A DNA stretch of 55,858 nt from a virus. Its lineage: Duplodnaviria > Caudoviricetes. The translations under genes and the position numbers were made by a program. Location of the stretch: the IMG/VR virus record IMGVR_UViG_3300019766_000001, positions 1 to 55,858 of that record. One strand, written 5' to 3'. Positions 7,236 to 38,649 of this stretch are shown here, piece after piece. Under the pieces are notes generated by a model. The model made no database searches and was not told where the DNA came from. It was given only the letters and a program-made list of their open reading frames with translations. How positions within the stretch are numbered: position 1 is the stretch's first letter; the number at the start of each line of letters is the position of its first letter.

Positions 7236-7680
7236 TAACGATCCTGATTGGCCGCCTACTCTGCCAAAGTTTCGTAAGTTCTGCGAGGTTGACGCTGAAG
7301 AACTCGGATTGCCATCTCTTGAAGTCGCTTGGCTGGAGGCTCAGAGATATTCCGCAGATCCTTTTCATGGTAAGTGGTCGCATCTGGCAATTAAGCAAGC
7401 CGCCAAAGAAACAGGCAACTGGGATATATCCAGAGCAACAAGTAAGGCTGAGCAGAAACGTTTAAAAGATGTGTTTGCGTCCTGCTATAACGATTTAGCA
7501 AAAGCTATGGCTAACGGTCATCAGTTGATCGAAAACGACGCACAGCACAATCAGGGGCGCGCTATGGCCGATAAAATGATCCGTGACGGTAATAAGCAGG
7601 CAGATGAGCAGGGTTTTACCGGAATCAAGGGTCAAGCTGCCATTGATCGAATGAAAGAAATGTTAAAGGGTAAGGGGTGA
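6964..7680 (+). CDS. Replication protein P-like (helicase loader)
   Basis: LWDRMNQLY..KW, WPPTLPKFRKFC, LGLPSLEVAW, WSHLAI motifs; follows and overlaps the initiator. Confidence 0.8.
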   Translation: MKSAQELARAQIAKSKTAGHTQTASATSLASGTKRTDSMKSMAYLWDRMNQLYPQGKWSKQEGETPTEIWIKALSTYDLSRIRIAITKAVDNDPDWPPTLPKFRKFCEVDAEELGLPSLEVAWLEAQRYSADPFHGKWSHLAIKQAAKETGNWDISRATSKAEQKRLKDVFASCYNDLAKAMANGHQLIENDAQHNQGRAMADKMIRDGNKQADEQGFTGIKGQAAIDRMKEMLKGKG

Positions 7681-8787
7681 TGTGTGTATGAAAATGCTGT
7701 TAAGTGCAAATCGTGCAAGTTTATCGAAAGAAGATTTCATAGCGCAGAGTTCTACAACTCATTTGGAAAGTATATTTGCGGCAATTGTGGCGCTGGAAAG
7801 GGTTGCTGGGTAGATGTAACGGTTGAGGTTGTCGATAACAGGAGGTTTTGGAATCCGCTTACATGGCGAGATGTACAGGTAAAAGAAGTTGGTGATAAGG
7901 GGTGATATATGGAAGATTCAGAGTTCCACGAAAAAATGATGAAGCTGACAAATTCTTTTAAGTCAGAAGAAAAAAAGATTCGTAAGCAGTACGCATTCAG
8001 TAGGAATACGGTGAAAGTTGGCGATATTATCCGAGATCACCAAGGATTCCTTGAGGTTGATTTAATTGGTGCCACAGAAAGCGGTCGATCAGACAGGATG
8101 CCGGAATGTATTTATAGAGGCTTCAGCATGACAAAAAATCAGGTCAGGCGGAAAGATGGTGAGAAGCGATGGATTATCCAGCGTTACGTTGAAGAGTGTA
8201 TCAATCAAGAGGGTGATGTATGAATAGCAATCAGGCCAAAAATACAATCAAGCGACGGAAGGCTTTAAAAAAAGAACAAAAGCGTCTTGGTGAATTGATA
8301 TGGAAAACCTCAATTAGCTCTAATTCTTACGCTGTGTATCAGCAGCGGTTAAAAGAAGTCGATAAAGAGTTGAGCGAGATGCATCCTGATTCTTTGTTTG
8401 CATTTCAGTCAATGCTAACAGTAGGGCAAAAGTCTAATTAGCATAAAAGGGTGATTTATGTGGGATTTAGCGGAAACAACAACGCCTGTAGCGAGAAAAG
8501 AATATCCGTGCGGCGCATGGGATTGGATTTGCAACGCTGGGCTCGATGAGCTGGATTACAAGCCTGAAGACTGGCGGGTAATTCAGGATGCAAAGAAAGA
8601 AGGCTGCAAAATATTAAAAGGGTCAAAGTACACGAAAACATCGGGTAAATATGATGGTGAGTTTTCGGTGTTTAGGGCTCGTATTGATCTGGATAAGATT
8701 TGCCAAGATTATGGCCTGTATCCAGAAAATTAAGCGATAAGTCTAATTAACAACAAGCCAAGGAAGGCGGAAAATAAGGGGTGATTT

Positions 8788-9108
8788 ATGTCGAGGCAAT
8801 GGAGCGATAAGGAGCTGGGTTATATAAAATCCAACGCGCTAACCATGACGGGCGAAGAGATGAGCCTAGAGTTAAGCAAGGAATATCCTAGAACCGCGTC
8901 AGCTGTAAGAACTAAGTTGAGTAATCTTGGTGTTGCTATGGGAAAGAGCGGCCCTAGAGGTAAGGCTGACCATGAGATAGCGGAGATGGTGAGGGTGCTG
9001 AAAGATAATGGTTATGGTGAGCGGATAATCAAGCGCTTTGCAGATGTAGCTGCCCGGATGTCGTTTGAGGCGATCAGAGATATTGCTCAGTACAGATCCT
9101 GGAGATAG
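8788..9108 (+). CDS. Putative HTH/Myb-like DNA-binding protein, paralog A
   Basis: RQWSDKE...MTGEEMS..L..RTASAV; ends YRSWR. Confidence 0.65.
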   Translation: MSRQWSDKELGYIKSNALTMTGEEMSLELSKEYPRTASAVRTKLSNLGVAMGKSGPRGKADHEIAEMVRVLKDNGYGERIIKRFADVAARMSFEAIRDIAQYRSWR

Positions 9109-9360
9109 CTATAAGGGGGCGGTTATGCGACAAACATTTAACAAAATGCCGGACGTTATTCGGTGCCAGCAAAACGCATGGGGAAACATCGGACGATGGC
9201 GCGGAAGGCTTCACTTAGTCGGGCTGGCTAAATATTACCGCAAGAAATGGGTTGCACGTTGCGAGTGCGGAAAGTACGCATTGATATCTCTGAAATCGTT
9301 TAATGAGAGTGGCGAGTTCGGATTACAGTGCGGTGAATGCCAGGATAATAAGGGGGTTGC

Positions 9361-9678
9361 ATGAGGGGGAGAGCCTGGTCTTTATTAGAAAAGAAATTCC
9401 TGTCTGACTACCCGATGATGAGCGGAAAAGATATGGCTGACAGATTGGAAAGGACAGAGGCATCGGTAAGTGGTAAGCGGTACAAGATGGGGATAGCAAC
9501 AAAGAAAAACGGAGAGAGCCATCGTAATTCAAAAATAACAGCAGAGCATGCTGAGATGATGCGGATTTTGAGCGATAACGGTTATAAGGCAGGAAAAATA
9601 AAAAGCTTAGGGGCTGCGATTGAAAGTATAGCGGTTCAGTCTGTAGACGATGTTATAAATTATAGGAGCTGGAGATAA
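9361..9678 (+). CDS. Putative HTH/Myb-like DNA-binding protein, paralog B
   Basis: RAWSLLE...MSGKDMA..L.RTEASV; ends YRSWR. Confidence 0.65.
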   Translation: MRGRAWSLLEKKFLSDYPMMSGKDMADRLERTEASVSGKRYKMGIATKKNGESHRNSKITAEHAEMMRILSDNGYKAGKIKSLGAAIESIAVQSVDDVINYRSWR

Positions 9679-9690
9679 AACGGGTGCTAT

Positions 9691-10164
9691 ATGGCTAAAA
9701 ACGATGTGATGATTATCATTGAAAACGCCGGTCAGCTTAGGGCTAAAATGAAGTACTGCTGGCAAGTGGTCAGTACGATAATTCAGGGTGGCCCGCTTGA
9801 GATATTGATCAGGATGCCCAGTAAGTCGCGGATCATGGAAAAAAAATACCATGCAATGATTCGTGATGTTGTTAAGAGCGTGAAGCCTGGAGGTGTTGAG
9901 TATTCAGCTGAAGCCTGGAAGCGGTTGCTGGTTGATCAGTTTGAAATGGAGCTGAACAGCCAAGGTGAGAAGCTAAGCCATCCTAGTAGGACTGTGATAA
10001 GCCTAGACGGTAAAAGGGCCATAACGCTGAGCCCTAGCACTACGCAATTCAGAAAAGCCGAGGCTGGCGATTTTATAGCGTTTCTGTACGCATTTGGCGC
10101 AGAGCATAAAGTACCGTGGTCAGAGCCTGCGCTACGGGTATTTGAAGAGTATAACGTGAGGTGA
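9691..10164 (+). CDS. NinB/Orf-family recombination protein
   Basis: SRIMEKKYHAMIRDV...EAWKRLL...STTQFRKAEAGDFIAFLYAFGAEHKVPWS. Confidence 0.8.
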   Translation: MAKNDVMIIIENAGQLRAKMKYCWQVVSTIIQGGPLEILIRMPSKSRIMEKKYHAMIRDVVKSVKPGGVEYSAEAWKRLLVDQFEMELNSQGEKLSHPSRTVISLDGKRAITLSPSTTQFRKAEAGDFIAFLYAFGAEHKVPWSEPALRVFEEYNVR

Positions 10165-10621
10165 TTATGAGTGTTCGTATTTTTATGCTTAGGGCTCTTA
10201 TTGGATGGTGGTGTATACCTGCGTTCTTTGCTGTAGCCTTTCCTATGATCTGGTTGATTACAAGTGATATAAATGAGGCTATTGACGAAAATAGGCTATT
10301 TGTAAATTTCTTATGGCACGGTAAATCATAGCGTGAGGGGTTAGGTATGACTTGCACCATTGTTTTTGGCGGTGTTATTTGCACAAATACAAATCACTAT
10401 AAACTGAGGATTTCTGATGGTCGCAGAGTTTTTATCGAGTGGCACGAGCATTGCGGCCCGGTAGTATACGTGGACAAGGCGATGAATAGAGAGCTGGAAA
10501 ACTGGTGGGAGGATAATCTGGTATGTAGCGCTATCAACTGGTTCGTCGGTAGAGGGTGCAAAGCTTGATTAAGACCATCGTCTAATAACACTCCTGCAAG
10601 TTAATTTGCTATATTTGTTTT

Positions 10622-11780
10622 ACGCCATCGCGGCGGGACTTGATCGACAGCTCAGCAGAGAGTTAAAAAGCCGAGTCACTGGCGTAACCAGTGTGCATTA
10701 AAAATCAAGCTGTTTTAAGTGTTGTGAGTATACATGGCGCTGGCACCCTCCTGGTCGACGGGGCGGGCTATAAGCAGGCTGCAGCTTGAGTAGGCGTCAT
10801 TAGGTGGACGCGATCATCGGTTGGGAATTTGGTCTTCAGCTTGATTTTTAATGCACAGATTCACCGGCTAAGCGGTGTGTATTGGATAGCTGTTTTTCGA
10901 TAGATATGTTGGTACGGATGAAACGAAAATGAATCCGTTATAAAGGCTGGGTGAATTAACGCTCTGTTATTTGAATTAACTTCACACCAACATCGTAAGA
11001 CAGCTATACCAGTACAGCGAAAGAATGCTGTGAAGCTTTGAATATCAAAGTGGAGCAAAGTAGCTGTATTGTTCGCCATCCAGCGAAAGCAAGGAGGTGA
11101 TCAACGTTAAGCGGTCGGGTTCGTAACCGGCAAGTCAACTCTGTGAAGCGTGGGCGAATTTAAGCTGAAGTGGGGAAACTGGAAAACCCGCCTTTGTTCG
11201 CATTGGTATTGCGTCGGTTCGAATCCGGCCTTCAGCACCATTAAGGCCCTAACATTATAGAGTTTTCGATTGATTGTTTTTTAATATGCTCGTCTGAAAA
11301 ATTAGCATATTTATCAATTTATTCTCTGGTTGTGCCGTTATTTCGTGGTGTACGAGCACCATCATCTGTAATCAGTTTGGCTGATTTGTAACGGTCCCGG
11401 TTCGATCCCGGTTATGGGTCATCAGTAATGGCTTTCGACGAGAGTTATTACTAGTGCGCTTTGCCAATAACTAATATTAACAAAAGAGTCAATAGTTCCA
11501 GTTAGTTGATTTTTAGTTGATTTATGTAAATTGGGAGCGTCAGAGCGCATTGCAATTTCTTGCTAATACCCTACATCAGGGCGCGGATCTGGCATTATGC
11601 CCGCGATAATTAGCCTTGTGTAGCTATGACGCTGCTGTCAATAAGGTTTACATGTTTCCTTCTTGGCAGACCTTACAGAAGAGCACGCAAGGCCGAATAA
11701 ATATGCAAGTAGGCAGGGTTCTATTTTCCCTTTCATGGTCTGGCCCGGATTCCTGCGGCAGGGCGTTTACTTTTACAGGT
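10622..11780 (+). ncRNA. Large structured non-coding region (series of long hairpins plus tRNA-like elements)
   Basis: No credible ORF; TGCTATATT extended -10 at 10607; perfect 21-bp inverted repeat 10692-10712 / 10837-10857; further nested stems at about 10878-11016, 11258-11328 and 11424-11551. Confidence 0.55.
11164..11240 (+). tRNA. tRNA-like gene, Arg(TCG)-like, with a defective anticodon stem
   Basis: Acceptor GCTGAAG/CTTCAGC+ACCA, D-arm GGG..TGG..CCC, T-arm GTCGG-TTCGAAT-CCGGC; anticodon arm poorly paired. Confidence 0.7.
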
Positions 11781-13825
11781 GATGAATGTTTAAACCGATT
11801 ATTCCGAAGGTTGTGCTTGACTACTGTCAGGCGCGACCGGGATGCAAAGACTGCAACATCTGCGATGACAAGCCAGTTAAGGCTGATAAATATTGGTTGG
11901 AGCAGAAGATTAAACAGGTAGTGTCATATCAGGGTTTAAGAACGGCTCCAGAGTGGCGCAAAGAGCTTGGCGTAGGGTTAAGTCATCCGTGGCGGTTTAG
12001 TGATTTCGAGCTGAAATATCAACGCATCTCTAAAGAAGAGTTTTTATTGAGAGCTGAGCATGGTAGTTCTAACCATAACGCTAACCCTTAATTTCATCAG
12101 CTACGAAAACACACCGTCCGTTAGCCGGACGTATTACGATGATCTTGATGAATGCCAAAGGGTAGCGAATAACTTCCTATACGGGCCTTCTGTTGATGTG
12201 TCGAAGCTTCCAGGTGTTGAGTCAGTAACAAGCACGGCAAAATGTGAATAGGTGTGATTATGAAAAAAGTGGTTCCTTTTTGGTTTCTGGCTAGAGCTGT
12301 ATTGATAGCTCCAGCCGTGGTCATGTCGATAATTGGTATTATTGGCGAAAGATGGATGGATGCTGTAGATAGGCATCTGCCAAGAGCTAGAAAGCATGTA
12401 AATCCAGAAAATCACGGGGGAGAGTGATGCGTATTTTATGGAATTTGTTGTTAGTTTTCACAGGGCTGATGGAATTGTTAGTATTCCCCCCCTTGATCCT
12501 GATTAACTTAGTGCTGTACTTCATGTTTAAAGCTAAGCCTGAGCCTCCAGCGCCAACGGTCGTGGTGATCAAAGAAGGCAAAGGCTAAAGTCGAATACCA
12601 ATAAATACTAATAACGGTAGTATTCGAGATCTAAATAAACGAACGGGTGATAATGATGGAATTAAAAATAAATCAAGGCGACAGGGTTAGGGTCGATGGC
12701 GGTTACGGTAAAGCAGATAACTTTATAGATATAAGCAAGGCTGGGTTTTCTGGGTTATGCACAACTCTGTTTACTGGGTTTCAGTATATTGAGATAAGAA
12801 AGAAAGGTGATCAATTAAGAGTTTATACTTTCCCTAAAAAATCGCACAAGGAAGAATATGATTTTGAACACTGGAAAGATGCCGAAGTGGTATTCTCGCT
12901 GAATGAGCAGATTATGCACAAGTGATCATTCTGGTTCAACTGCCAACTAAAAGTTGACAGCTGAACCTGTAAGTAATCGTTACAAGCTGGATTAAGGGGT
13001 AGGGTATGTCAGAGTTAACTGAGTTTTTACGGTGTGATGCGGATGGCTGCGGCCACGTTGAGCTTATTGAGAAGATCGAACAATCATTAGTCGGTAAAGC
13101 ATGCCCTAAGTGCGGTGAAAGCCTGCTAACACAGCCTGATTTCGATGAATGGACGGCTAGCGTTGCTCCTATGTTGGCGCTGGCAAAACAGATGGCTGGT
13201 GAAGCTGAAGACGATATGACCGACGAAGAAAAGCTTAATGCCTACGAGCACCATATATCGGTTAACCTGGTTGACGGTAAGCTGAAGGTAAACGTTGGTG
13301 ATGACGTTGCCAAAAGGGTTGACGACAGCTAAGCATAAATAAGGGGTGTAAAATGCTAAGGCGATTAAAAATATTATGGCTAAAAAACCTTGTGCGAATG
13401 GCTGACCTACTGATCAAATACGAAGAGTACGCGCCAGACCAGGGAGAGGTAAACGATGTCGTGGCAACTCGAAACAGGATACAGAAGGATCTTGAGCGGA
13501 TAAACGGTTTTACAATGTAGCTTGCCAAAGTATGAGTATAAATAAGGGGTGTATTGTGAGTGAAAAAAGATGCGCAAAGTGTGATGCATGGGCTCAGTAT
13601 CAAGGGTTATTCCCGTCTGAGGTAGGGTGTAGCTGCAAAAAGACATTGCCAAAGTCTAAGCATAAATAAAGGGTTGTTATGATTGAATATTGCATTTATT
13701 GCGGAGAAGAGATCGTTCCTAGCGATGAGCGCGTAGAAAAGATGTTTGGCGCTGCTCATTTTGAGTGCTCAGAAACAGAAGACCCGGAGGAGCTTGATTA
13801 AATTTAAGCATAAAGTATAATTGTC

Positions 13826-14272
13826 AGTGCTGATTGGGGTGGTATCCAAGTAGGCGAAAGGGTTTATAGTGTGTTTTCTGATCAGGCTCCCCAGCTCTGA
13901 TATACCACCAGAATCACACTGTAAGCCCTTTTTTTATGTAAGTTCCCGCCCCACGTCCCGAAGCCAGAAACGGTTAAAGGGATTACTCCGAGCAATCCCA
14001 CGTAATCAGCTAGACCAGTATGTCGGTTAAAACCGGTGCGTACTGGTGACAATCCCGCTACATGGCACAGAGAGCAAGCGGGAGCGCCTAAGAGTTGCCT
14101 TAACGGGTGTAGGTCTAGCGCATGACTCTGGTGGTTCATTGACCATACTGACCTAAGTCTATTAGACCATGATCGAATAGACTGCCTAACGTCCCAAGAT
14201 GTACTGTGACGAGCATAGGGTGTAACAACTAAACCTTACACCTGTAGGGCTTAGAGTTGTTATGCCTGTCAG
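13826..14272 (+). ncRNA. Second structured non-coding region (attenuator-like leader plus multibranch structure)
   Basis: TATAAT at 13816; ~24-bp stem 13857-13932 with U-tract; many hairpins from 13979 to 14272. Confidence 0.5.
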
Positions 14273-14308
14273 AACCCAGAAACCAGTTCAGAGCATATAG
14301 GTGTAGAG

Positions 14309-14704
14309 ATGAATAAACACGAATACCGCCACTACCTAAGAAAGGGAGAGGAAAGGCTTGATTATCCAGTTGAGGTAGATCAGCTAAGAAAAAAGGTTTT
14401 AGAGATAGGCAGGGTTATATCAAAAATAAAGTCTGATAGTGATAACGGATGGAAGGGAGGGGTCAAAAGTACTTCTTACAGGTATTCGTCAGACAGTCTT
14501 TCATGGGGCGGATGGTCTGCCGACTGCGAATCTATGTGGTCACTTACAGCAGAGGGAGCTGTTGTTGCAAGGGTTTACGATTGCCACGGCCAAGGGTGGT
14601 TTGAGTTTATGAACGTCAAGACCATTGATAAAATTTATGATCAGGTGATGGCTTTTAAATCTGAATACGATAGCAATATTGCCGATACTTCGAGCCACCA
14701 ATAG
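14309..14704 (+). CDS. Hypothetical protein
   Basis: AGGTG RBS; 131 aa. Confidence 0.7.
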   Translation: MNKHEYRHYLRKGEERLDYPVEVDQLRKKVLEIGRVISKIKSDSDNGWKGGVKSTSYRYSSDSLSWGGWSADCESMWSLTAEGAVVARVYDCHGQGWFEFMNVKTIDKIYDQVMAFKSEYDSNIADTSSHQ

Positions 14705-15396
14705 TCATATAGGGTTAAAGATATGAAGCTGCCAAGAGTACAGAAAGACCAGTTAGAGCCGGGTAAAATGTATATATGGAGCACGCCCGACGGAGAGCCA
14801 AGGGTTGTATGGGTTAACAATGATGATCCAAATACGATTGATGAATGGGGTGATTGCTGGGAGCGTGCAAGATTGAAAGGTAAATTCTACGGGCCGGTAG
14901 AGCTGGAAGATTAACACCCGCTATCCGGTGGGTTCAGAGTAATTAAGGGGTAGAGTGATGATTTACACGGTAAATAACACTAACGCAATAGGAGTGCCTG
15001 TTGATGTATTTGTTAACGGGAACCTAGTTAAGTACCCGAGCACAGCTGACACGGATCGCGGTGTTGTGGTTTATTATCCTGATCCTATCAGGGTTACAAA
15101 TCGAGGTGACGCCATTTACACGAGAAAACTGAAGGGGGTTGTTACGGTAAAACCGATCAATAACCGGTGATCAATCGGTTTTATCTATTAAGCCTGCTGA
15201 TTGGTCGGTGATATAATTAAATCTCTACAAGGCATCCTTAAATCTGAAGCCTCAGAGCCTGCAAAGGTGGTTCCGCCTCGTTCCAGCGTTAAAATCCCTC
15301 CTTAAATGTTTATTGATCCATTATCAAACTAAGCTTGACCTTATTATTTAGATTCCTTATTATTATACTCAAGGTTATTAAATAAGGGTTAATCTT

Positions 15397-16026
15397 ATGA
15401 AAACGGCAGTGGTAATGGAGCGGAAGCTTTGCGGAAAGGTGGTCAGGCAGAATCACAAGACGCGAATGTTCAATGCAAACGATCTTCACTTGGTTGGTAA
15501 TGACCTGAGAAAGCAAGCCGGGTTGACTCAAAAGCAGGCGGCTTCTTATTTTAATCTGGATTCAACTAAGGAGTTGATCAATCAGATCTGCATCATTGAA
15601 AACCTTTCATCAGACGACGTTAAGAAATCTACTCGCGGCAAGTACGGCGGAACATGGGTTCACCCTATTTTATTTGCCGATATGGCCATGTGGTACAGCC
15701 CTGAGCTAAAAGTAAAAATCCTGAAGTGGGTAATGGATGGCCTGCTTGATGTTCGTGATAACTCCGGTGATAGCTACAAGAAAATGGCGTCTGCTCTAAA
15801 GCAGTCTTTCACCAAAGAATTCACGCCTTTGAAAATGGCAGAGGTGGCCAACACTATTGCGGCCGAGTGTCGAGTGGGAAACGGTTCCGGCCGGTGGGAG
15901 AAAGCATCTCAGGTGCAGCTTGATAAACGTGACAGTATTCAAAGCGCAGTGGCCTTGATAGCGGATATGTGCCCGAACATTGGCACGGCCGTAAGCAAGG
16001 CGATCATAAAAACAAAGCATGTCTAA
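15397..16026 (+). CDS. KilA-N domain protein
   Basis: MFNANDL...TKELI...RGKYGGTWVHPILFADMAMWYSPELKV; own promoter TTGACC-N17-TATTAT. Confidence 0.9.
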   Translation: MKTAVVMERKLCGKVVRQNHKTRMFNANDLHLVGNDLRKQAGLTQKQAASYFNLDSTKELINQICIIENLSSDDVKKSTRGKYGGTWVHPILFADMAMWYSPELKVKILKWVMDGLLDVRDNSGDSYKKMASALKQSFTKEFTPLKMAEVANTIAAECRVGNGSGRWEKASQVQLDKRDSIQSAVALIADMCPNIGTAVSKAIIKTKHV

Positions 16027-16554
16027 GCACGAAAGCAATTACCTGGAGGGTTAGAATGAATCATCAGCCAAAGGGCGGCATGTGCGCCGTCTGCGCCAAT
16101 AAGCACAAAGACTGTAGCGGTTTAAAGTTTGATGAGATGCCGATTTACTGCAGCTACAAGGTGGGCATGGTCAAAAGCAATATTGTAATTTGCACTGAGT
16201 TTAAGCGAGAGAAGGAATTAGAGACATGAGTGAGTGGATAAGCGTGAAATCAAGGGTTCCTGTGATACACGATAATTGCTGGAGAACATCTTTGCCTTAC
16301 CCTGTAGATGTTGAGGGCTTTGGCTTGTGTTATGCCTACTTTTGTACAAACAGTGACGGATATACTTATTGGACTCATTCTCTGACGCTTGGTCGTGACG
16401 ATGGAGGCAGGCCGGATAGCGCTGGCGCAAGAGAGGAGATTTTAGGCGTGAAAAGCTGGTATGAAATATCTAACCCTAATGCCAAAGACTAACGTCTAAT
16501 ACCAAAACGCAACCACGGTGATAAGCTGGGGATTCATTTTAAGGGGTAACAACG

Positions 16555-16827
16555 ATGTCGAAATTAAATATCGCAGGAAAGAATAAAGCTGAAGTTCTAG
16601 CGAAACTTTATAACGCAAGTAAGCCTTTAGGTATGGGCGTGCTTCACTTTGATCCTTCAGAGATGACGGTAGATCAGGCCCAAGAAATTATCGATAAGGA
16701 AGGGCTTCGGTTTGACTACCTCAAGGGTCGTGTAATGAAGGTAAATCTTGAGGGTGATGAGCTTAGTGTATCTGGTTTTGATCGCGATAATGGTCAAGGT
16801 GCGGCAGAGCGAGCTATTAACGGTTAA
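16555..16827 (+). CDS. Hypothetical phage protein
   Basis: KAEVLAKLYNAS..GMG...FDYLKGRVMKV...DRDNGQGAA; TAAGGGGT RBS. Confidence 0.75.
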   Translation: MSKLNIAGKNKAEVLAKLYNASKPLGMGVLHFDPSEMTVDQAQEIIDKEGLRFDYLKGRVMKVNLEGDELSVSGFDRDNGQGAAERAING

Positions 16828-17145
16828 GCGTGAAATTTTAAGGGGTAGGTTATGAAAAACGCAGATAAGCCAGCAATGCCGTTAACAGAAGATATGGATG
16901 CGGCGATTTCAAGCAGTAAGGACAGGGATCAGTACTACACTGGCCTAACAAAGCGCGAGCACTTTGCAGGTCTGGCTATGCAGGGTTTTTCAGGTTTAGA
17001 GGAAGACCATTTTGTAACCGTGCAAGAAATGGCCGTTACCGCAGTAAAGTACGCGGACGCTCTACTTGATGCGCTGGAAAAGTCGAAAGGCCGCGAAGAA
17101 GCGGAAGTTAAATCAACAATAGCAAGTAGCACTAAGGGGTGAATA

Positions 17146-18177
17146 ATGGAAAATCAATTGGTAGTAATCGAGCAGAAAAACGTATTAGCAGTATTTAGCC
17201 AAGACGACGGACTGGAGTACGTAATCAATCAGGCAAAAGATGTTGTAAACAGTTTTGAGCATGACCTTTTGACCGATGCAGGGCGTAAGCGTACAGCTTC
17301 ACTGGCTAATAAAGTTGCCAAGCTGAAGGTTCAGCTCGACAACATGGGCAAGGCTTCTGTTGCAGATCTAGCAGCACGTAAAAAGGCTGTTGACTCTAAC
17401 CGAAAGGCGATGCGTGACGAGCTTGACGAGTTAAAGCGGGAGGCCAGAAAGCCTCTAACTGACTGGGAAGAAGAGCAGAAAGAAATAAAGGCCAAAGAAG
17501 AAGCTGAGCGTCTTGAAGCTGAGCGCAAAGAACAAATTGACCGAGATCATGAGCTTGGTGATTTGACGAACAAAGAGCATGATCGTCTTGCCGAAGAGTC
17601 GCGCAAAGAAGCTGCCGAGTCTGAGCGTCTGCGCATTGAACGTGAAGCTAAGGAAAAGACTGAGCGTGAAGAACGATTAAAGAAAGAAGCTGCTGAAAAC
17701 GCACGTCTTGAAGCTGAACGTAAGGCCAAAGAAGAAAAAGACCGCATTGAACGTGAAAAACAAGAGGCTGAGCAAGCAAAAGTTCGCGCAGAAGAGCAAG
17801 CCGCGCAAGCTGAGCGTAACCGTATAGCTGCAGAAGAACGGGCTAAAGCTCAAGCGGAATTAGCAGAGCAGCGAAGAAAAGAAGAGGCTGAGCGAGTAGA
17901 AAAAGCCAGAATTGAGGCTGAGGCAAAGGCTAAGCGTGATCAGGCGATTGCTGCAGAAAAAGCTAAGCAAGACGAAATCGACCGGCAGAATGCAGAAGCT
18001 GCACGGGTCAAGCAGGAGCAGGAGCAGCGAGAAGCAAATAAACGCCATGTAGGCTCTATTCGCAAAGCGGCAAAAGAGGATCTAATGCAGATTGCTGGTG
18101 TGACGGAAGAAATCGCTAAGGCCATTGTATTAAAGATTAATGCCGGTGAAGTTCGTAACGTTGAAATCAAATATTAA
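17146..18177 (+). CDS. Coiled-coil early protein (E/K/A/R-rich)
   Basis: GRKRTASLANKVAK N-terminal domain, long charged helical repeat region. Confidence 0.85.
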   Translation: MENQLVVIEQKNVLAVFSQDDGLEYVINQAKDVVNSFEHDLLTDAGRKRTASLANKVAKLKVQLDNMGKASVADLAARKKAVDSNRKAMRDELDELKREARKPLTDWEEEQKEIKAKEEAERLEAERKEQIDRDHELGDLTNKEHDRLAEESRKEAAESERLRIEREAKEKTEREERLKKEAAENARLEAERKAKEEKDRIEREKQEAEQAKVRAEEQAAQAERNRIAAEERAKAQAELAEQRRKEEAERVEKARIEAEAKAKRDQAIAAEKAKQDEIDRQNAEAARVKQEQEQREANKRHVGSIRKAAKEDLMQIAGVTEEIAKAIVLKINAGEVRNVEIKY

Positions 18178-18265
18178 CAACTGGGACTGGGAGGCCAAGA
18201 GATTGTTCTCCCGCATTCAAAAGCAGCGTAAAGCGGATAAATTAAATCAGTATAGGGGTGATGGA

Positions 18266-19240
18266 ATGAACCGGTTCAGCGAAGAGTTAAAGCAGATTGT
18301 ACGGGATACTAAAGGGGTTTGGGCAGACGACTCTAAAGAGGTGTGTTTATTGTGGCTTGGTGTAAGCGTCGTTGAATGGCTGCCAGAAGAGGAGGTTTGT
18401 AAGCGTGGCTATGTCGAATATTACAGTCGCCCAGAATACGAGCGCTGCTTGATGCATATGACCGGAAGGCCGAAGGTTGATAGATGGAATAATAATACTC
18501 GTGAAATTAGATATACAGCTAATGGTGAGTGGCTTTCGTATGATGAAGATAGGCACGAGAACGTATTTTACGGTCAAGGTGAAAAAATGGATGGGTTTTG
18601 CATTGTCATTACCCGAGAAGAAGCCTTGGAGCGCGAACGTATTGCTTTTGGTGGTGAGAAGAAAGCGCCAATCAAGCCGGGGCAGTCTATGAAAGAAGCT
18701 TATGAGGAAAACTTTGGCTCCATGGCCAGCGGTGGGAGTATCGAGCAGGCAGAGGCGGATATAGCGGGACTGACTGTTGTTTCCGAGGGCTCTATCGGTG
18801 ATATAGGTATTGATCAGAATACGATTAGCATAGAGTTTGACGGGGCTGATGATTATCTTGAGCGTAATAATGACTGGTTCCGTAACGGTGATATGCCGCC
18901 TATTGGTGAGAAGTTAGTTGTTCTGCGTGGTAAAAAGAACAATCTAAAGCCTGTTAAAATGTCTGTTCTTAGCTCATGGTCTGGAAGTAAAAAACAGCAT
19001 TCGCGTATTTGGCTGACGGATAATGACAGCCGGTTCTGCACGGTAAAAGATGGGTCTATTTATCCGACGAATTTTAACTTTGGCCAAATGTATCTTGATG
19101 CTATCGAAGAAGATGTCATCAGAGATAAAAAGTCAGAATTATTCACTATGATTATGGATGTGATGGCAAGCGAGGAGTATTTTGATGCAGAGGTTCTGGC
19201 TGGTAAATTATTCGACCAAGGTTGCCGTATCGTAAAATAA
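18266..19240 (+). CDS. Hypothetical multidomain protein
   Basis: AGGGGTGAT RBS before MNRFSEEL. Confidence 0.7.
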   Translation: MNRFSEELKQIVRDTKGVWADDSKEVCLLWLGVSVVEWLPEEEVCKRGYVEYYSRPEYERCLMHMTGRPKVDRWNNNTREIRYTANGEWLSYDEDRHENVFYGQGEKMDGFCIVITREEALERERIAFGGEKKAPIKPGQSMKEAYEENFGSMASGGSIEQAEADIAGLTVVSEGSIGDIGIDQNTISIEFDGADDYLERNNDWFRNGDMPPIGEKLVVLRGKKNNLKPVKMSVLSSWSGSKKQHSRIWLTDNDSRFCTVKDGSIYPTNFNFGQMYLDAIEEDVIRDKKSELFTMIMDVMASEEYFDAEVLAGKLFDQGCRIVK

Positions 19241-19256
19241 AAGGTAAAGTAAGACT

Positions 19257-19348
19257 ATAAATCACTCTCTCGCTTGATATCTTACTCCTTTGTTGTTGAT
19301 GTGACATGTTGAAACCCGCTACCGACCCCTTACGGAAGCGGGTTTTTT
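19257..19348 (+). ncRNA. Candidate anti-Shine-Dalgarno small RNA
   Basis: TTGCCG-N17-TAAAGT promoter (19222-19250), intrinsic terminator 19312-19348, no ORF; contains ATCACTCTC, ACTCCTTT and ACCCCTTA. Confidence 0.55.
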
Positions 19349-19391
19349 AATGCCTACTATTTGATGCTACAATGCAGGTAACGCGCGGGGT

Positions 19392-19937
19392 GTGGCTATG
19401 TGGGTGCTATATAAAACACGGATCGTTAGAAAGCTAAAATCTACAGTCATCGCCATCTCTATTTATTTTATGTTGCCTGAGGTTATAGGGTTTATGTCTG
19501 ATGCTGCCGATACTATTAGGGAGATAATAGCCAACCCTAAAACCATGGGTGGTGCTGCCGGTACTGGATGGATAGCAACACTATGGGAATCTATTAACTC
19601 TGCTGCACCAGATCTATTGCTATTCCTGTCTATATTCGCAACATGCCTAACTATCTGGGCTTTTTTCAGCAATCGAAAACGGCAGAAGGCCAGAGATGCT
19701 TACGAAAAAGAGGTCAGGGATAGGGAGGAAGAGAGGAAAGAAGAGCTACACCAAAAGCAGATAAAAATATTAGAAGAGGCTGCAGCAAAAGAAAAAGCAA
19801 AGCGCGTTGAGTCAGAGAGAAAGCATGAGCTAATGGAGGAGATCAGCGTTCTGTCAAAAAAGGACATTGACCCTGTTGCCTTGGGGGAAATGATGGGAAA
19901 AGTTACTAAATTCGAGCCAAAGAAAAGAGAAGCGTGA
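19392..19937 (+). CDS. Holin-like membrane protein (alternative start at 19494)
   Basis: Hydrophobic segments (GAAGTGWIATLW; LLLFLSIFATCLTIWAFF) followed by a highly charged tail; TGCTACAAT promoter at 19365. Confidence 0.5.
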   Translation: MAMWVLYKTRIVRKLKSTVIAISIYFMLPEVIGFMSDAADTIREIIANPKTMGGAAGTGWIATLWESINSAAPDLLLFLSIFATCLTIWAFFSNRKRQKARDAYEKEVRDREEERKEELHQKQIKILEEAAAKEKAKRVESERKHELMEEISVLSKKDIDPVALGEMMGKVTKFEPKKREA

Positions 19938-20502: not shown

Positions 20503-21603
20503 ACACTCTAACCCTATCTATCCCATACCCTACGCTAGAGCAGCTGATTAACTTTGCTGGCATGTATTCCATGTTTGTTATTTTTGGCTTGATACTTTTG
20601 GTATTGTTCGCTTTGGTTTTCGGTATAGATGATACCGTTTATGGCTTGGGTGACTTTTTGTTATGGGTATTTGGCTTGGCCGGATTTGTTGCTTTGATAC
20701 CAATATCTATGTTGCCGGTAATGAAAGATTTTGATTGGTCAAGGCGGATTGTTTACTCCATAACAACATCTTCAACTTTCGTCGTATTCTACATTTCTGC
20801 GCTATGCGGCATAATCTAGCTTTAACTGAGGGTGATGGTATGAGTAGCGAATGGATAGACTGGGAAGGCGGGCTGCCTCCAGTTGATTGTGATGTAAAGG
20901 TTGACGCTATCGAAAACACTGGGGCTATTCGTATAGCGTTTCATGCCAGTAACATCGACTGGTCAAAAGAATGTGCGAGTAAAAAGAATTATCCTATATC
21001 AAAATACCGTATCTGGATTCCAGACCCCCGCAAAGAGTGGGTAAAGATTCAGGAAGGGTGTCCGATGCCTGGAGAGGATTCTAGTTACCTATATTTGTTT
21101 GTAGATGGTGAGCAGGTGATAGGTGGGTGTGATAATGATGATGGGTGGTGGCAATGGAATCCTAATAGCCGTTACGGTAGTTTGTCTAACCCAACACACT
21201 GGCGCTACCCTCACCCTGACCCGGAGGATTGATTATGGATGGTATCGAGATTGAGGTAGTCGGAGAGCTTAACTGCTGCGAAGGCCAGAAGCTGAAGGAT
21301 GCGCTAATAGAATACGGGTTTGAAGATACTGGTGAGATGAATGAAGCTGACAGCGCGGGTATATTGGGCGTGTTGATGAAGGATTTAGATAAATTCGATC
21401 ACGGGTTTGATTTTAAGCAAGATTCCCATAACAAGATGCGAGACGACTTTATCCGACATAAGACATACGGTCGTAAGCGGTGGTAAAAGTTACACTATAA
21501 CATGCCTCGGATAACCGGGGCTTTTTTACGTCTGATTGTTTTGTGTTAAACTAAAGACTAACGCGCAGGGCGCAAAACATAAACTGCAGGGCAGTGAGTG
21601 TGT

Positions 21604-22038
21604 ATGACCACCGGAAGACCTTCGAGCTATAAAGAAGAGTTTGCTGAGCAAGCCAAGAAGCTATGTAAGCTTGGTGCTACAGATATTGATTTAGCTGATT
21701 TCTTTGAAGTTCACTTGGCAACTATTAACAGATGGAAGCACAGATATCCAGAGTTTCGCGAGTCCTTAAATGAATACAAGGTTTTTGCTAATGCTAATGT
21801 TGAGCGGTCTTTGTATCAAAGGGCCACCGGGTATGACTGCGTTGAAACCAAGGTATTCAATAATCAGGGTGAGATAGTCACTCATGATGTTATTAAGCAT
21901 TTCCCTCCAGATCCTACCTCTATGATCTTCTGGCTTAAGAATCGAGACCCTGATAACTGGCGTGACAAGCCTAATTCAGAAGGCGGTGATGATCTTGCAG
22001 AAGTAGTTTGTAAGCTGATAGATAAGCTTCCTTCATGA
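21604..22038 (+). CDS. Terminase small subunit
   Basis: GRPSSY..E..EQAKKLCKLGATD..LADFF.V...TINRWK; PPDPTSMIFWLKNR; directly upstream of TerL. Confidence 0.92.
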   Translation: MTTGRPSSYKEEFAEQAKKLCKLGATDIDLADFFEVHLATINRWKHRYPEFRESLNEYKVFANANVERSLYQRATGYDCVETKVFNNQGEIVTHDVIKHFPPDPTSMIFWLKNRDPDNWRDKPNSEGGDDLAEVVCKLIDKLPS

Positions 22039-24754: not shown

Positions 24755-24767
24755 TGTATAATGTATT

Positions 24768-24855
24768 GGCGGCTATCCCGACGGGGAGAAAGCACGGAAC
24801 GTAGACCGTGTTGCCGCTACATTTCTTCTACGCCGACTAACTACGAGGTCTGTAT
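24768..24855 (+). promoter_or_regulatory. Structured leader RNA, copy B
   Basis: GGCGGC/GCCGCT stem, TCCC-GACG-GGGA hairpin, GAAA linker, loop CGTAGA complementary to TCTACG and CTACG(AGGT). Confidence 0.65.
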
Positions 24856-26053: not shown

Positions 26054-26537
26054 TTATGGAATCTATTGTATTTTTTGCCCTTGCTAATATTTCCGCCCTG
26101 ATATCGGCGTTAGGGGTTATTTTTTCCGTGGAGATACTTTTCCATGAGGGAGTAAGATTGTTTGAACGGGCTGTTATCAACCTTCCTACCTCTCTAGCCC
26201 TGTTATTATTGTCATTTTTGACATCTGAGGTTGCTAATTATTTCTACGACAAGGCGGTGATGCTATGAGTGATTATATTTTTGCCGACTGGTTTTTTGTT
26301 TCGGGGTCGATTATCAGTTTGTTGGTATCCTTAAAGGCATTGCTGGATATAAATGATAGGCCGTTTACAGTAGTTATGATGACTTTTTTGTGTTTGATTT
26401 ACGGTGTGATTTCTGGCGATCGTTACTCTAACTGGGTTGATCACGGTTATTTTATGGTTAAAAACATTCAACAATAACGCCAAAACACTCCTATCTCGGC
26501 CTAAACCGGCTGCTTAGAAAGCACGGTATTTAACATT

Positions 26538-26561
26538 AAGCCCCTTAATTGGGGCTTTTTT
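26538..26561 (+). terminator. Intrinsic terminator
   Basis: AAGCCCC-TTAATT-GGGGCTT plus T-run. Confidence 0.8.
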
Positions 26562-26593
26562 ATGCCCGCCACCTTTGTTTAATTAAAATAATC

Positions 26594-26643
26594 GGCCTAT
26601 CTGCACTTTTTCTATTGATTCTTAGGTCTATCCGCACTATTAT
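26594..26643 (+). promoter_or_regulatory. sigma70 promoter overlapped by two direct-repeat operators
   Basis: TTGATT-N17-TATTAT; GGCCTATCTGCACT (26594) and GGTCTATCCGCACT (26625). Confidence 0.7.
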
Positions 26644-26682
26644 ATATCCATACCAACGACAAACAACAACGGAAACGCAGCC

Positions 26683-28261: not shown

Positions 28262-28462
28262 ATGGACGGCTGGATTGATTGTAATGATAGACTGCCTGAA
28301 TCAAAGAAAGGCGAATGGTCTAGGGATGTTATCGCACTGACTGATTCCGGTGATGTTTTCAGGCTGGCAATTCAAGGGGCGTATTGGTAAAGATCGGGTG
28401 ATTTTGTTCGATCTGAGTCAACGAAAGTAACTCACTGGATGCCGCTTAATTACCCTGACTAA
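28262..28462 (+). pseudogene. DUF551-like gene with a premature TAA at 28388
   Basis: MDGWIDCNDRLPE...AYW*RSG...KVTHWMPL in a single frame. Confidence 0.75.
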
Positions 28463-28549
28463 TAGCGAACACAAAGACCCGGCACTGTCCGGGTTTTTTT
28501 ACACCTGCTATATGCTACAATATCCGAAAGTCTAATTGACGGATATAAA

Positions 28550-29938
28550 ATGCCAGTCAACGCAGAACACCCGCAATATACAGAGAAGAAAGACGAATGG
28601 CAGCGCAACAATGATTGTGATGCTGGAGATATTGCGATCAAGAAAGGCAAGGATAAGTATTTGCCCATGCCGGAGAAGGATAACGAAGAGCGATACAAAG
28701 ACTTTCTAACGTCTGCGCTGTTCACTAACTACACTGGAACCAAGCGTCGTGATTTAGTTGGCAAGGTATTCAGGAGGCCTCCTGTTGTAACGCTTCCTCC
28801 TGAGCTTGAGTACATCAAACAGAAAGCCGATAACGGTAATGTGACCCTTGAAACAATGGGTCAAAGAGCTGTTGGCAACGTCTGGCTTAATGGTCGTTAT
28901 GCTTTGGTTGCAACATTCCCTGATATTGAAATGCCTTTAAATGAGGACGGGAACCCTGTTGCATTAACCGCCGAACAGTCAGAGGGTCTTCAGGCTTATA
29001 TCGCAACATATCCAGCCTTATCGGTTAGAAATTGGCGTGATGTTAATGGCCAATTGACCATGGTTGTCCTGCATGAAATTGACTACGACATGACGGACGA
29101 GTTCACGCGAACAGCTATAAATATGTTTCGTGTTTATAGGCTGGTCGAGTCTGACGGGCGCAAGAGAGTAACGTTCCAAGTTTACCGAGAAACAACCGCT
29201 TTAGGCGATCCTAAAGAGATAATCTTTAACGGCGTTCCCGCTGAAGAAATCCCGGTTGTTCTTGTCGGATCTGAAGATAACAACCCTGATTGCGACTTTG
29301 CCCCAGCATCTGATATCTGCGCTAATAATATTGCTGACTATCAAATGTTTGCCATTTGCGCTGAAAACGGATTTGTTGGAGGTCAGGGTACTATGCATAT
29401 AGATTCCGGGCTGACTAATGCAGCTGATTTTTCAGCTGCAAACCCTATGATCAAAGTCGGTAATCGCAATGCAATTATTACCCAGGGCGGCAATGCAGAA
29501 ATATTCACCCAGAAAGAGAACACTATCGCTAGAGCTCTGACGCAGGATATTAAAAACACCCTGTATGATCTAGGTGTTAATTCAGGCGGCGCTCAGAAAG
29601 GCACAGAGACAGCAGAAGCAGCAATAATCAGGGCTGCTTCCGATGCTGCTGTCATGAACGTGATTGCTCAGAATGTTTCCGATGGTTTTACGCAGGTCTT
29701 GAAGTGGTGCGCCATGTTTATGGGTGGCGATCCTGATAAAGTTGAATTTGAGCTGAACAGAAACTTTTTCCCTGTTCGGCTAGACCCTCAGTTATTGCAG
29801 CAGCTTTCTTCTTTGGCTGCTCTTGGGGATATCCCTCGTCAGGTTATTTACAATTATCTTCGAGAGTCTTCTGATCTATTAAATGGGATCGATGATGAAA
29901 CTCTTGGCGTTATGATTGAGCATCAGCCGCCTATTTAG
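28550..29938 (+). CDS. Portal protein (DUF4055-type)
   Basis: 462 aa; KYLP..ERY...A.F.NYT..LVG.VFR, ETAEAA, EFELNRNF; directly upstream of scaffold and capsid genes. Confidence 0.88.
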   Translation: MPVNAEHPQYTEKKDEWQRNNDCDAGDIAIKKGKDKYLPMPEKDNEERYKDFLTSALFTNYTGTKRRDLVGKVFRRPPVVTLPPELEYIKQKADNGNVTLETMGQRAVGNVWLNGRYALVATFPDIEMPLNEDGNPVALTAEQSEGLQAYIATYPALSVRNWRDVNGQLTMVVLHEIDYDMTDEFTRTAINMFRVYRLVESDGRKRVTFQVYRETTALGDPKEIIFNGVPAEEIPVVLVGSEDNNPDCDFAPASDICANNIADYQMFAICAENGFVGGQGTMHIDSGLTNAADFSAANPMIKVGNRNAIITQGGNAEIFTQKENTIARALTQDIKNTLYDLGVNSGGAQKGTETAEAAIIRAASDAAVMNVIAQNVSDGFTQVLKWCAMFMGGDPDKVEFELNRNFFPVRLDPQLLQQLSSLAALGDIPRQVIYNYLRESSDLLNGIDDETLGVMIEHQPPI

Positions 29939-33910: not shown

Positions 33911-33935
33911 AAAAGCCCCTTAACGGGGCTTCTTT
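33911..33935. terminator. Bidirectional terminator between convergent genes
   Basis: AAAAGCCCC-TTAAC-GGGGCTTCTTTT. Confidence 0.8.
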
Positions 33936-35176
33936 TAATCCTCTGGCGCACCGGGCGACAGCATGTAGTGGGTTACTGTTACGCCAGACACTTTATATTT
34001 GTGGCCATGGCAATTGTAGAACTCACCATTTTTAAACGTCATATTTAAAGCTCTGCGACCTGTATTAATCCAAACATCATAAACTCTACCCTCTTCTGGA
34101 TCTTCCCAGAGTAAGTTTTTCCATCCGCTCATGATTCACCCCTTGCTTTGGCCAGCGCCTCTTGAATAGAATCTAGATCAAAAGTCAAATCCATCCCGGA
34201 TTCGACAATTAGGTCTGCCACTTCCTTTAGTGCTGCATACATCTCAGGAGCAGCGGCAATCAGGCTGGCGTTTGCCTCTTGCTGCTCTTCTTGCACACCA
34301 CCAATTGATTCAACTACCAGTGCCGCTACATTACCATATTCGTCTGAAACTCCAACGAATCCAGACATGCTTGAGTTTGCATCTTCAGCATGCCAGCCGT
34401 CACAATCAATATAACGGCCATTTTGTTTTGTCACCCACGGCCCCGGTGTAAATTTAGTCTCGCTCATCTCCTGCCTCCTTTTCACTGTACTCTGCCATAA
34501 GATCACAAGATCCATTCGCGTTTATCAACTGCATTTTGTTTAAAAATGAAACATGATACTGTTCGGCTACGTTATATCGGCCACCGGGATCTGATTTAAT
34601 GCTGAACTTCACGCTTCCCGGCTTAATTTCCAGCCAATCTATTTCTTTTGCATCGATAAACATTCCGTCTTGATATTTAACTAAATACATAAATCACCCT
34701 TAATTTTATCTTCTTGCTCGTTAATTATTTATATCCATGCCGCCATGTAAAAGCTAGCTCGGATCATTTGCCTTAATAAAGAATCGATATAGATCACTGG
34801 CCACCCCTTTAAAAGCCTAGCCATTATCACCCTTTAGACATTCGCTAGACATTCGACTTTGGTTTATTGCTAAGAATCGCCATCTAGCATCTGATGCAAA
34901 GCCTCAAGCGCCTCACTGGCAACAGAGCCATCCTCTACGCAGACGGCGCCATCTTCTGTCCAGCCTTTTTTATGAACCTGGTATGCTGGATTTTTTTCTG
35001 TAAATCTTTCAGCGTTACAGTCATTGCTAAATAATTGCTCATGCTCTTGTTCTGCGTAAAATTCGAGTGCTTTTACAGTTAAAGCAATTGCATCGGAATT
35101 ATTTGAATTACTCATGTTTACTCCCCTATCCTCGGAACCCTAACCGCTTCCGCATAAACGCTAACCTGCTCTTTGG

Positions 35177-35878
35177 CTAGCCGTCATAGCACCCGCAAAT
35201 TATATCCGTTTCCAAATACATATCTGGGAACATGTCATCTGTAGCTATAAGTGAAGACCATGCATAAGTCCGTCCAAGCCCCTTGTTAACTGTTAAGTCT
35301 GCGTTTTTCTCCATTGCTATTGCACGATCCATTAAATCTGGGTGCTGTACTGAAAGGGCTCTAATCTCATGCGCCTTCATTGCCGGGCAGAAAAAACAGC
35401 TGCTCTTTCCTGGCAGCGGCAAACCTTCAGCCCTTATTGCTTCTATGCACTTTTTTCGCCCCCACCCCCAGTCATAAAGCGGGAACTCCGTTTTGCTGTC
35501 GTCTTTGACTCGATGGCTTTCATCTGCATCTATACCGACAAAAAACACATCAACCTTAATACCTTGCTGCTTTAACCATCTTTTTTGCGGTCTGATTTTG
35601 AAGTGTTCGCTGCAACTTTTAAACCCGTAAGCAAGCCCAGGCAGTGCGTTTCTGTTCAGGCAATCTTGCTCTAAAGTCTGCTTTTCTGAGCAAATTGATA
35701 TTTCGGGAAACCCGTTATCCTTGCACCATTTCTGCATAATTTCTAAATGCGCGTAGGTTTCCGGCTTTTCCCCGCCGGTATCAGCAAATAAAATAACATC
35801 AGGCTTAATTCCTTTTTGCTTAAACCCTACCAGCATTGCAACACTGTTTGTGCCTGCTCCGTAGCTTAATACATTCAT
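35177..35878 (-). CDS. PAPS-reductase / PP-loop family protein
   Basis: LSYGAGTNS PP-loop, FADTGGE.PETY, FPLYDWGW, KSSCFFCP. Confidence 0.85.
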   Translation of the reverse strand: MNVLSYGAGTNSVAMLVGFKQKGIKPDVILFADTGGEKPETYAHLEIMQKWCKDNGFPEISICSEKQTLEQDCLNRNALPGLAYGFKSCSEHFKIRPQKRWLKQQGIKVDVFFVGIDADESHRVKDDSKTEFPLYDWGWGRKKCIEAIRAEGLPLPGKSSCFFCPAMKAHEIRALSVQHPDLMDRAIAMEKNADLTVNKGLGRTYAWSSLIATDDMFPDMYLETDIICGCYDG

Positions 35879-37490: not shown

Positions 37491-37671
37491 ATAAAAACAA
37501 TCTCCTTCGTGTGAAATCTTATAATAACCGCTCCATTATATTATTTCAAGTAAGCTTTGATGTAATTTCACGTATACGAAGGTCTAATAAGATATGGTAG
37601 AATAGACAGGAAAAAGAAAACCCGCATCAAAGGAGCGCCAACTCCTAGCGGGTTAAACATTAGATATGTGA

Positions 37672-38415: not shown

Positions 38416-38649
38416 GGTTACCAACCTCAAGCTCACGCTCTAGCAGGCGCGCCATCTCTTTTAATTTAATGATAACTTCTTCAGGGCTGCCGTCTACCAA
38501 TTGCAGGCTTTGGTGCCTGTCGTTATCCCAGTCAATGCGGATCTCTTTTTTGTTGTCGAATTCATTTGTCCAAATTTTAGCTAATCTAGCCATGGTTAAT
38601 TACCTTTTAACTGTTAACGGGGTAGAGTTTTACCAGTGGTACGGTACGG

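Follow-up and report, generated by a model that had tools for sequence, protein, structure and literature searches.

The closest described systems to the locus analysed here are short phage RNAs produced at operon ends. Lambda LPR1/PreS is about 88 nt long and ends at the early-left terminator tL2a. The evidence for PreS comes from Northern blot and Hfq RIL-seq, host targets have been described, and Hfq also binds lambda 6S (bioRxiv 10.1101/2024.10.31.621285). Short PR'-tR' RNAs are known for lambda, 21, phi80, 82 and P22, and StxS, a PR'-tR' by-product, represses stx1B by pairing at its RBS (PMC7547250).

We analysed a locus of an uncultivated environmental phage, for which the initial annotation had proposed a small RNA acting as a multi-target silencer of early genes. 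The predicted RNA is similar to PreS in its comparable size, its place in the operon and its early-operon terminator with a U tail. It shows no sequence similarity to it (blastn, 50,697 phage records). The PreS transcript has been demonstrated, whereas the RNA described here is predicted from sequence alone, and the targets given in that preprint are those of the host, not the phage's own early-gene RBSs. With lambda 6S and StxS, the locus shares the same lambda-like map place and the layout of promoter, short RNA and terminator. It differs from them in that no Q-type antiterminator was found (PHROGs, Pfam), in the separate conserved promoter sequence past the hairpin, and in size, since the 92 nt predicted here compare with 194 nt in lambda 6S, while StxS is 258 nt long before it is processed to 74 nt. 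An ordinary terminator followed by an extended -10 restart promoter is resembled in the GC-rich hairpin, the U6 tract and the TGn plus TACAAT placed 16 nt further on. The differences from such a pair are a 73-nt tail included in the homology with a related phage and a loop that is the exact complement of the commonest RBS 8-mer.

Results

Gene order and position of the locus

The window, that is the whole stretch of DNA analysed, is a virus record of 55,858 bp representing a complete phage with direct terminal repeats. Family scans with PHROGs and Pfam gave a lambda-like gene order:

Leftward genes: SSB, HNH endonuclease, Erf, exonuclease
6309, rightward early arm: O-like initiator
6964, rightward early arm: P-like loader
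9691, rightward early arm: NinB
15397, rightward early arm: KilA-N
17146-18177, rightward early arm: PHROG-1376 protein
18140-19240, plus strand: last gene of the rightward early arm (ORF list), 366 aa from the first ATG
19387-19937, plus strand: first gene past the junction, with SD GGGGTG at 19387-19392, ATG at 19398, 179 aa
21604: terminase small subunit
22035: terminase large subunit

Since the O-like, P-like, NinB and KilA-N genes lie upstream and the terminase genes 2.2 kb downstream, the locus had been rightly placed directly after the last rightward early gene. The gap had also been described as free of ORFs, and it contains no plus-strand ORF of 25 aa or more. Several small proteins without family are encoded between the 179-aa gene and the terminase.

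An alternative, SD-preceded ATG at 18266 would shorten the 366-aa protein to 324 aa. This protein has no Pfam or PHROG family match, and a search of 5.8 billion proteins gave only three hits at E<=0.001, including the phage's own copy. Its AlphaFold model was unusable (mean pLDDT 36, 4-row alignment), and an Atlas search gave no usable result. The 179-aa protein has hydrophobic stretches, as judged by eye, and no family match.

A single related phage

The sole relative found has a genome of 55,279 bp and comes from a habitat of the same type. It was retrieved from IMG/VR with protein and DNA patterns, four of the latter being used, and a metagenome scan led to the same contig. Neither megablast nor blastn gave a match among 50,697 phage records, the upstream 366-aa protein had no tblastn match in the phage collection, two scans of genome contigs returned no relative, and the distant homologue P0004 was not found in IMG/VR. 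Three DNA sequencing runs contained only the phage's own form and that of the relative.

The two genomes are mosaic, with about 19.2 kb aligning in 49 pieces at 70-100% identity, and several of these pieces are short islands at gene junctions. At our locus, where the block 19233-19395 is conserved, the island extends from the last conserved codons of the upstream gene to the next start codon; other conserved junction islands are 21542-21602, 28472-28557 and 42902-43012. The C-terminal half of the upstream protein is 40% identical in the relative, while the relative's protein starting at the place of the 179-aa gene is a different one, without BLASTP similarity. At our locus the 73-nt tail is part of the homologous stretch. 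The conserved island of the 28.5-kb cassette does not start before the terminator, and the 42.9-kb cassette has no tail, because its hairpin follows the stop codon.

The relative was also informative for other candidates in and around the gap. A minus-strand ORF of 51 aa (19152-19307) is reduced to 24 aa there, with five residue changes and one deletion. Two tiny plus-strand ORFs lack an SD, and one is interrupted by a stop codon in the relative. The sequence of a nut-like boxA candidate, picked by eye, differs between the two phages. We rejected all of these.

Terminator and putative restart promoter

Downstream of the early arm, the following elements were recognized:

19312-19348, plus strand: intrinsic terminator, arms 19312-19324 and 19333-19345, U6/T6 tail 19343-19348
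19325-19332: terminator loop, 8 nt, which is motif 3 (DNA ACCCCTTA, RNA ACCCCUUA)
19365-19373, plus strand: P2, predicted extended -10 promoter TGCTACAAT, with TG at 19365-19366 and TACAAT at 19368-19373
19365, 28513, 39413 and 42952, plus strand: copies of TGCTACAAT

An intrinsic terminator had been proposed, and its parts are all present: a GC-rich hairpin, directly followed by a U tract, 3' of a gene. The 13-nt arms are 92% complementary, with one internal A.A mismatch, and the hairpin scan gave -15.1 kcal/mol. It lies 73 nt past the stop codon of the upstream gene (19238-19240), and it is the strongest plus-strand hairpin plus T-run in that scan between the one at 5.4 kb and 21.5 kb.

P2 begins 16 nt past the terminator. 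It shows the sigma-70 extended -10 pattern, a TG at -15/-14 next to a hexamer whose second base is A and whose sixth is T, with a predicted start near 19380. The four copies of TGCTACAAT, all on the plus strand, compare with 0.62 expected, and none of 100 shuffles had as many. All four are intergenic, have a start codon 27-40 nt downstream and are matched in position in the relative; three directly follow terminators, and those other than 19365 precede late gene blocks. The looser pattern TGNTANAAT is not enriched (13 against 11.45 expected), its 13 occurrences all being on the plus strand.

Plus-strand terminators recur across the late region, at about 21.5, 26.5, 28.5, 32.1, 33.9 and 42.9 kb, and the design of a terminator plus a restart promoter is repeated at about 28.5 and 42.9 kb. 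Given this recurrence of terminators and TGCTACAAT copies, module borders appear to be points where the phage ends one transcript and begins the next, and our locus would be one such border. The sequence CCCCTTA has four plus-strand copies, three of them within terminator hairpins (19326, 26541, 33916). As two other terminator hairpins carry it, motif 3 is less special than it appears, although at 19325-19332 the motif makes up the whole loop and not part of a stem.

The untranslated tail and its candidate promoter

Upstream of the terminator, the features considered were:

19222-19250, plus strand: candidate promoter P1, TTGCCG at 19222-19227, 17-nt spacer, TAAAGT at 19245-19250
19257-19348, plus strand: predicted RNA of about 92 nt, from P1 if it fires; otherwise the untranslated early-mRNA tail from 19241
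19261-19269, plus strand: motif 1, AUCACUCUC, in the unpaired 5' end
19271-19303, plus strand: weak stem-loop 1, 19271-19279 pairing with 19294-19303 in the two-copy consensus fold
19284-19298, plus strand: motif 2, ACUCCUUUGUUGUUG, in and beside the loop of stem-loop 1
19248-19254 and 19280-19286, plus strand: inverted repeat AGTAAGA / TCTTACT

P1, with a predicted start at A19257, had been called a good promoter, a description that did not hold. It scores 8/12 and was not listed by the promoter scan. The plus strand has 134 sites that score at least as well and the minus strand 166, the mean in shuffles being 162; equal or better sites being as common in shuffles, P1 is no better than chance. 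Both of its hexamers are nevertheless identical in the relative, where the end of the upstream gene that overlaps P1 is read in a different frame and the 4 nt just past the -35 differ. At the predicted transcript start there is also a -10-like TATAAA (19256-19261), which presumably resembles sigma-dependent pause elements; it reads TATCAA in the relative.

The predicted folding energy of the 92-nt RNA is -24.2 kcal/mol (z = -3.75), and none of 200 shuffles folds as well; the relative's copy has a z of -4.06. The predicted order is an unpaired 5' end, the weak stem-loop and the terminator. The three C/U-rich motifs are present at the places where they had been reported, and they are mostly unpaired in the predicted ensemble. 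The minimum-energy structure predicted for the 3' end of the early mRNA contains the inverted repeat, which would mask motif 2 in transcripts entering from upstream.

Conservation is uneven along the module, as the differences from the relative indicate:

RNA body, 57 nt: 6 substitutions and a 3-nt deletion
Terminator, 35 nt: 2 substitutions, confined to the internal mismatch (19321 and 19336)
P2 and leader, 49 nt: 1 substitution and 1 insertion

The RNA body varies most, and the terminator and P2, with fewer differences, are the constrained parts of the module. All seven mutational events in the RNA fall at unpaired positions of the consensus fold (p ~0.01). Stem 1 is free of changes, which alone is not significant (p ~0.15), and 0/22 pairs are changed on both sides, in a comparison of only two sequences about 90% alike.

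Conservation of the motifs, judged from this one relative about 90% alike, looks mixed. Motif 3 and ACUCCUUUG are kept, while motif 1 carries two changes (CA to TG at 19263-19264) and motif 2 is shortened by a 3-nt deletion (19290-19292). The unpaired 5' end is the most changed part of the RNA, at 3/13 positions. The relative has no GCAATTGAT-type RBS matching its altered motif 1, while GGTGATTTATG start regions persist there. Within the inverted repeat, one pair is changed on both sides (A19254G, T19280C) and the adjoining pair is broken (C19281G).

Complementarity to ribosome-binding sites

The RBS bias pointed out in the initial annotation is pronounced: TAAGGGGT has 14 matches against 1.22 expected, a number reached in none of 100 shuffles. 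All 12 plus-strand copies stand 5-8 nt before start codons, 10 of them within the early arm (7.6-17.2 kb). The terminator loop is indeed the exact complement of this commonest RBS 8-mer. Pairing with CAACAACAAAGGAGT-type leaders had been claimed as well; the plus strand has 0 copies of the long form CAACAAAGGAG, and what it does contain is the short AAGGAGT, in 6 copies. Motif 1 together with the preceding AUAA is complementary to GGTGATTTATG start regions, four on the plus strand and one on the minus strand.

Heptamers of the RNA are Watson-Crick complementary to 30/96 start regions, a count within the top 0.15% for 92-nt windows of the plus strand. The 96 regions were hand-picked from 133 ORFs, short nested or antisense ORFs being dropped and some starts taken from another list. 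Only four other plus-strand loci match at least as many, two CCCCTTA terminators and two stretches antisense to minus-strand genes. Since the locus had been preselected as the most striking of 55 kb, its rank in the top 0.2% is weaker evidence than it appears. With an automatic gene set (non-overlapping ORFs of at least 50 aa with an SD-like motif), the RNA matches 23/81 start regions and 3/1000 dinucleotide shuffles do as well; for the relative's copy, the figures are 20/86 and 15/1000. These match counts are not independent, because one anti-SD-like heptamer matches many regions at once.

Motifs 1 and 3 each form at least 7 bp with 13/33 early start regions against 5/63 of the others (Fisher p = 0.0005), while motif 2 has no early-gene bias. 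The best matches among early start regions are those of the genes that start at 8458, 8788, 16555 and 17146. RNAduplex energies were discarded, as they ignore intramolecular folding and put 90/96 start regions at -10 kcal/mol or better.

Similarity to RybB

A narrow cmscan of the 221-nt region around the locus returned RybB (RF00110) at 25.7 bits (E 0.002), in a match covering the whole model, and the relative's copy reached 28.0 bits (E 0.0005). Both are below the Rfam gathering cut-off of 40 bits, and the E value becomes about 0.5 when scaled arithmetically to the whole 55.9-kb record. The match was not picked up by the whole-record gathering scan or by a genome-wide RybB search. Three terminator regions of the same length served as controls:

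26420-26640: best match RyhB, 22.6 bits, E 0.034
28360-28580: best match AbsR28, E 0.5
21400-21620: no match

Both copies thus stand 3-6 bits over the best terminator control. Trp_leader (20.5 bits) and Pseudomon-1/ErsA (21.6 bits) also matched our region, with scores like those of a control terminator, and were set aside.

The unpaired 5' part and the terminator of the RybB model align with 19284-19351, sharing ACU.CUUU, UUGAUGU, CAU.UUGA and CCCGC...GCGGG with a U tail. The conserved seed of the sigma-E family, to which MicV and VrrA also belong, is CRCUGCUUUU (PMC6694218), and UACUCCUUUG agrees with it at 7/10 positions by eye. Apart from its score, the locus differs from the family in its internal start, as the aligned part begins 27 nt inside the predicted P1 transcript, and in that no sigma-E-like promoter was seen by eye before that part. 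The alignment is therefore a lead and does not establish family membership.

Discussion

We consider that the locus is best explained as a junction cassette between the early operon and the next transcription unit, with a tail that has no dedicated trans role, and we give this explanation about an even chance of being right. The strong intrinsic terminator at 19312-19348 would stop transcription coming from upstream, and the extended -10 promoter TGCTACAAT (19365-19373) would restart it to serve the gene that begins at 19398. The early mRNA would have as its tail the 73 untranslated bases upstream of the hairpin; a few RNA copies may also start at the weak P1, and the C/U-rich stretches would play no dedicated silencing role. 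The two genomes directly show the hairpin and the repeated promoter 9-mer as well as the conservation of both, and we infer termination at the hairpin, firing of P2 and a tail without trans function.

As the terminator and P2 are the best conserved parts and the 9-mer is repeated after terminators, the core of the module looks like an ordinary cassette of a terminator and a restart promoter. Its setting agrees with this, in a lambda-like order with Erf and exonuclease leftward, the O-like, P-like, NinB and KilA-N genes rightward and terminase 2.2 kb downstream, at the strongest plus-strand terminator between 5.4 and 21.5 kb. The enrichment of TGCTACAAT in intergenic positions after terminators, its retention in the relative, and other junctions that are likewise short conserved islands in this mosaic pair point the same way. 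So do the chance-level score of P1, the presence of CCCCTTA in three terminator hairpins, the loss of motif 1 in the relative, and constraint that falls on the terminator and P2 and not on the RNA body. However, several observations fit a simple cassette less well. The anti-SD heptamers exceed what composition gives in both phages, the P1 hexamers are kept even though the relative reads the overlapping gene end in another frame, all seven mutational events in the RNA are at unpaired positions, and RybB scores higher here than any family does at the control terminators. Unlike the cassettes at 28.5 and 42.9 kb, this one includes the 73-nt tail in the homology.

A trans-acting base-pairing sRNA that ends at the shared terminator, and is either transcribed from P1 or processed out of the early mRNA's 3' end, is a tentative alternative to the junction cassette. 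Its unpaired C/U-rich stretches would pair with G-rich SD sequences (TAAGGGGT, GGGTGAT) and block ribosomes, mainly on early genes. The heptamer enrichment, the early-gene bias of motifs 1 and 3, the exposure of the motifs in the predicted fold, the terminator with its U6 tail and the retained P1 hexamers suggest such a role, as do the sub-threshold RybB scores of both copies and the precedents of PreS and StxS. Against it, P1 is at chance level, conservation within the module is lowest in the RNA body, and the unpaired 5' end, the usual place of a seed, is the most changed. The relative lacks motif 1, with no corresponding change in its RBSs, CCCCTTA is found in two other terminator hairpins, and the conserved P2 right past the terminator gives the cassette an ordinary job. 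The heptamer counts are not independent, the RybB match is below the cut-off with an incomplete seed and is missed genome-wide, and covariation is absent in two sequences so alike.

Within this alternative, the specific proposal of a multi-target early silencer or early-to-late switch is in our opinion unlikely. It would have a dedicated RNA of about 92 nt carry the ribosome's anti-Shine-Dalgarno sequence in three partial copies. Sites of the TAAGGGGT or GGGTGAT type are used by early genes and not by most late ones; given this difference in RBS class, the RNA would, as it accumulates, bind and shut off the early class. We regard the developmental switch as a hypothesis. A second form of the sRNA alternative, a RybB-like RNA acting on host envelope-protein mRNAs, is very improbable, with a match that scores below the family cut-off and a seed that agrees only in part.

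It is rather improbable that the locus is a late control region of the lambda PR'-tR' type, in which P1 would be the late promoter, the hairpin would stop transcription to leave a 6S-like by-product, and a phage antiterminator would later let polymerase read through into the late genes. The position just after the early arm and before the block leading to terminase is the expected one, and the anatomy of promoter, short leader and terminator fits, including the -10-like TATAAA; such short RNAs are known in lambda and the other phages named above. But no antiterminator family match was found among the 22 rightward early ORFs (PHROGs) and the Pfam-scanned proteins, and the gene just upstream has no family match. 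A conserved promoter sequence follows the hairpin, with terminator-promoter pairs at 21.5, 28.5 and 42.9 kb. The recurrence of such pairs along the late region speaks for restart rather than read-through, and stopping and restarting at module borders argues against a single antiterminated late transcript. In addition, P1 is weak and the TATAAA is altered in the relative.

We find it just as improbable that the sequence acts as a cis element of read-in or read-through mRNA, as a protein-binding decoy or as a DNA-level site. A cis element could work by masking and unmasking through the repeat 19248-19254 / 19280-19286, or by pairing with the downstream SD. The whole block 19233-19395 is conserved, and the inverted repeat is part of the minimum-energy fold with one pair changed on both sides, but the adjoining pair is broken in the relative. 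The loop pairs with the downstream SD over only 5 contiguous pairs (by eye), and the predicted fold of the read-through RNA keeps the terminator hairpin, the downstream SD remaining unpaired with the loop. By eye, there is no upstream G-rich partner for an antiterminator.

If the RNA is trans-acting, it would make this uncultivated environmental phage one of the few known to have operon-end sRNAs, such as lambda PreS, 6S and StxS, and it would raise the idea that early and late translation are separated by RBS class. If it is only the tail of the early mRNA, the locus belongs to routine phage annotation, and it would still be a clean example of terminator-plus-restart cassettes as islands between mosaic genes.

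A repeated late promoter candidate

The extended -10 9-mer TGCTACAAT occurs four times in the window, always on the plus strand and each time upstream of a late gene block:
19365-19373, plus strand, TGCTACAAT
within 28477-28521, plus strand, TGCTACAAT
39413-39421, plus strand, TGCTACAAT
within 42904-42960, plus strand, TGCTACAAT
A terminator lies immediately 5' of three of these copies, and the sole related phage found retains each of the four. The 9-mer looks like the phage's late promoter class.

Organization of the late region

An identical 13-base sequence, TTTTTTACGTCTG, follows two distinct terminator hairpins (21522-21534 and 42920-42932). A 630-nt stretch (26054-26682), whose ORFs are all tiny, contains two terminator-like hairpins:
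26077-26125, terminator-like hairpin
26511-26561, terminator-like hairpin
The latter gave several matches to sRNAs and leaders, all of them sub-threshold. Within the late region there is also a mainly minus-strand coding island (33935-39390), including:
35177-35878, PAPS-reductase-like gene
38650-39390, DNA methyltransferase gene

In 42072-42903 one ORF stops at 42608 while a different frame stays open until the stop at 42901-42903, shortly 5' of a gene of tape-measure size (1722 aa). From this arrangement, the two frames look like the usual tail-chaperone frameshift pair.

Two proteins match PHROG 6095:
15397-16026, plus strand, PHROG 6095 match, also with a Pfam KilA-N domain (the Pfam scan of the pair covered this protein only)
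36852-37490, minus strand, PHROG 6095 match
This PHROG carries the label 'amidase', which is probably misleading.

Possible RNA genes

About 1.2 kb (10569-11785) lacks a convincing ORF. Rfam matches a tRNA there at 11164-11237 (37.6 bits), with an acceptor-like stem and CCA at its end, whereas ARAGORN detected no tRNA at these positions. The segment 11138-11236 is 94% identical in the related phage, and a second T-arm-like segment lies at about 11393-11420. Rfam also reports int-alpA RNA at 24766-24833, barely over the cut-off (37 against 35.8 bits); the match is flanked by two late genes, an odd location for this motif.

Ribosome-binding-site classes

Ribosome-binding sites of the TAAGGGGT type, the window's commonest 8-mer of this kind, or of the GGGTGAT type are much commoner on early (7671-17140) than on late genes, with 10 of the 12 TAAGGGGT copies falling inside that early interval. 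This bias may be the consequence of module ancestry rather than of regulation.
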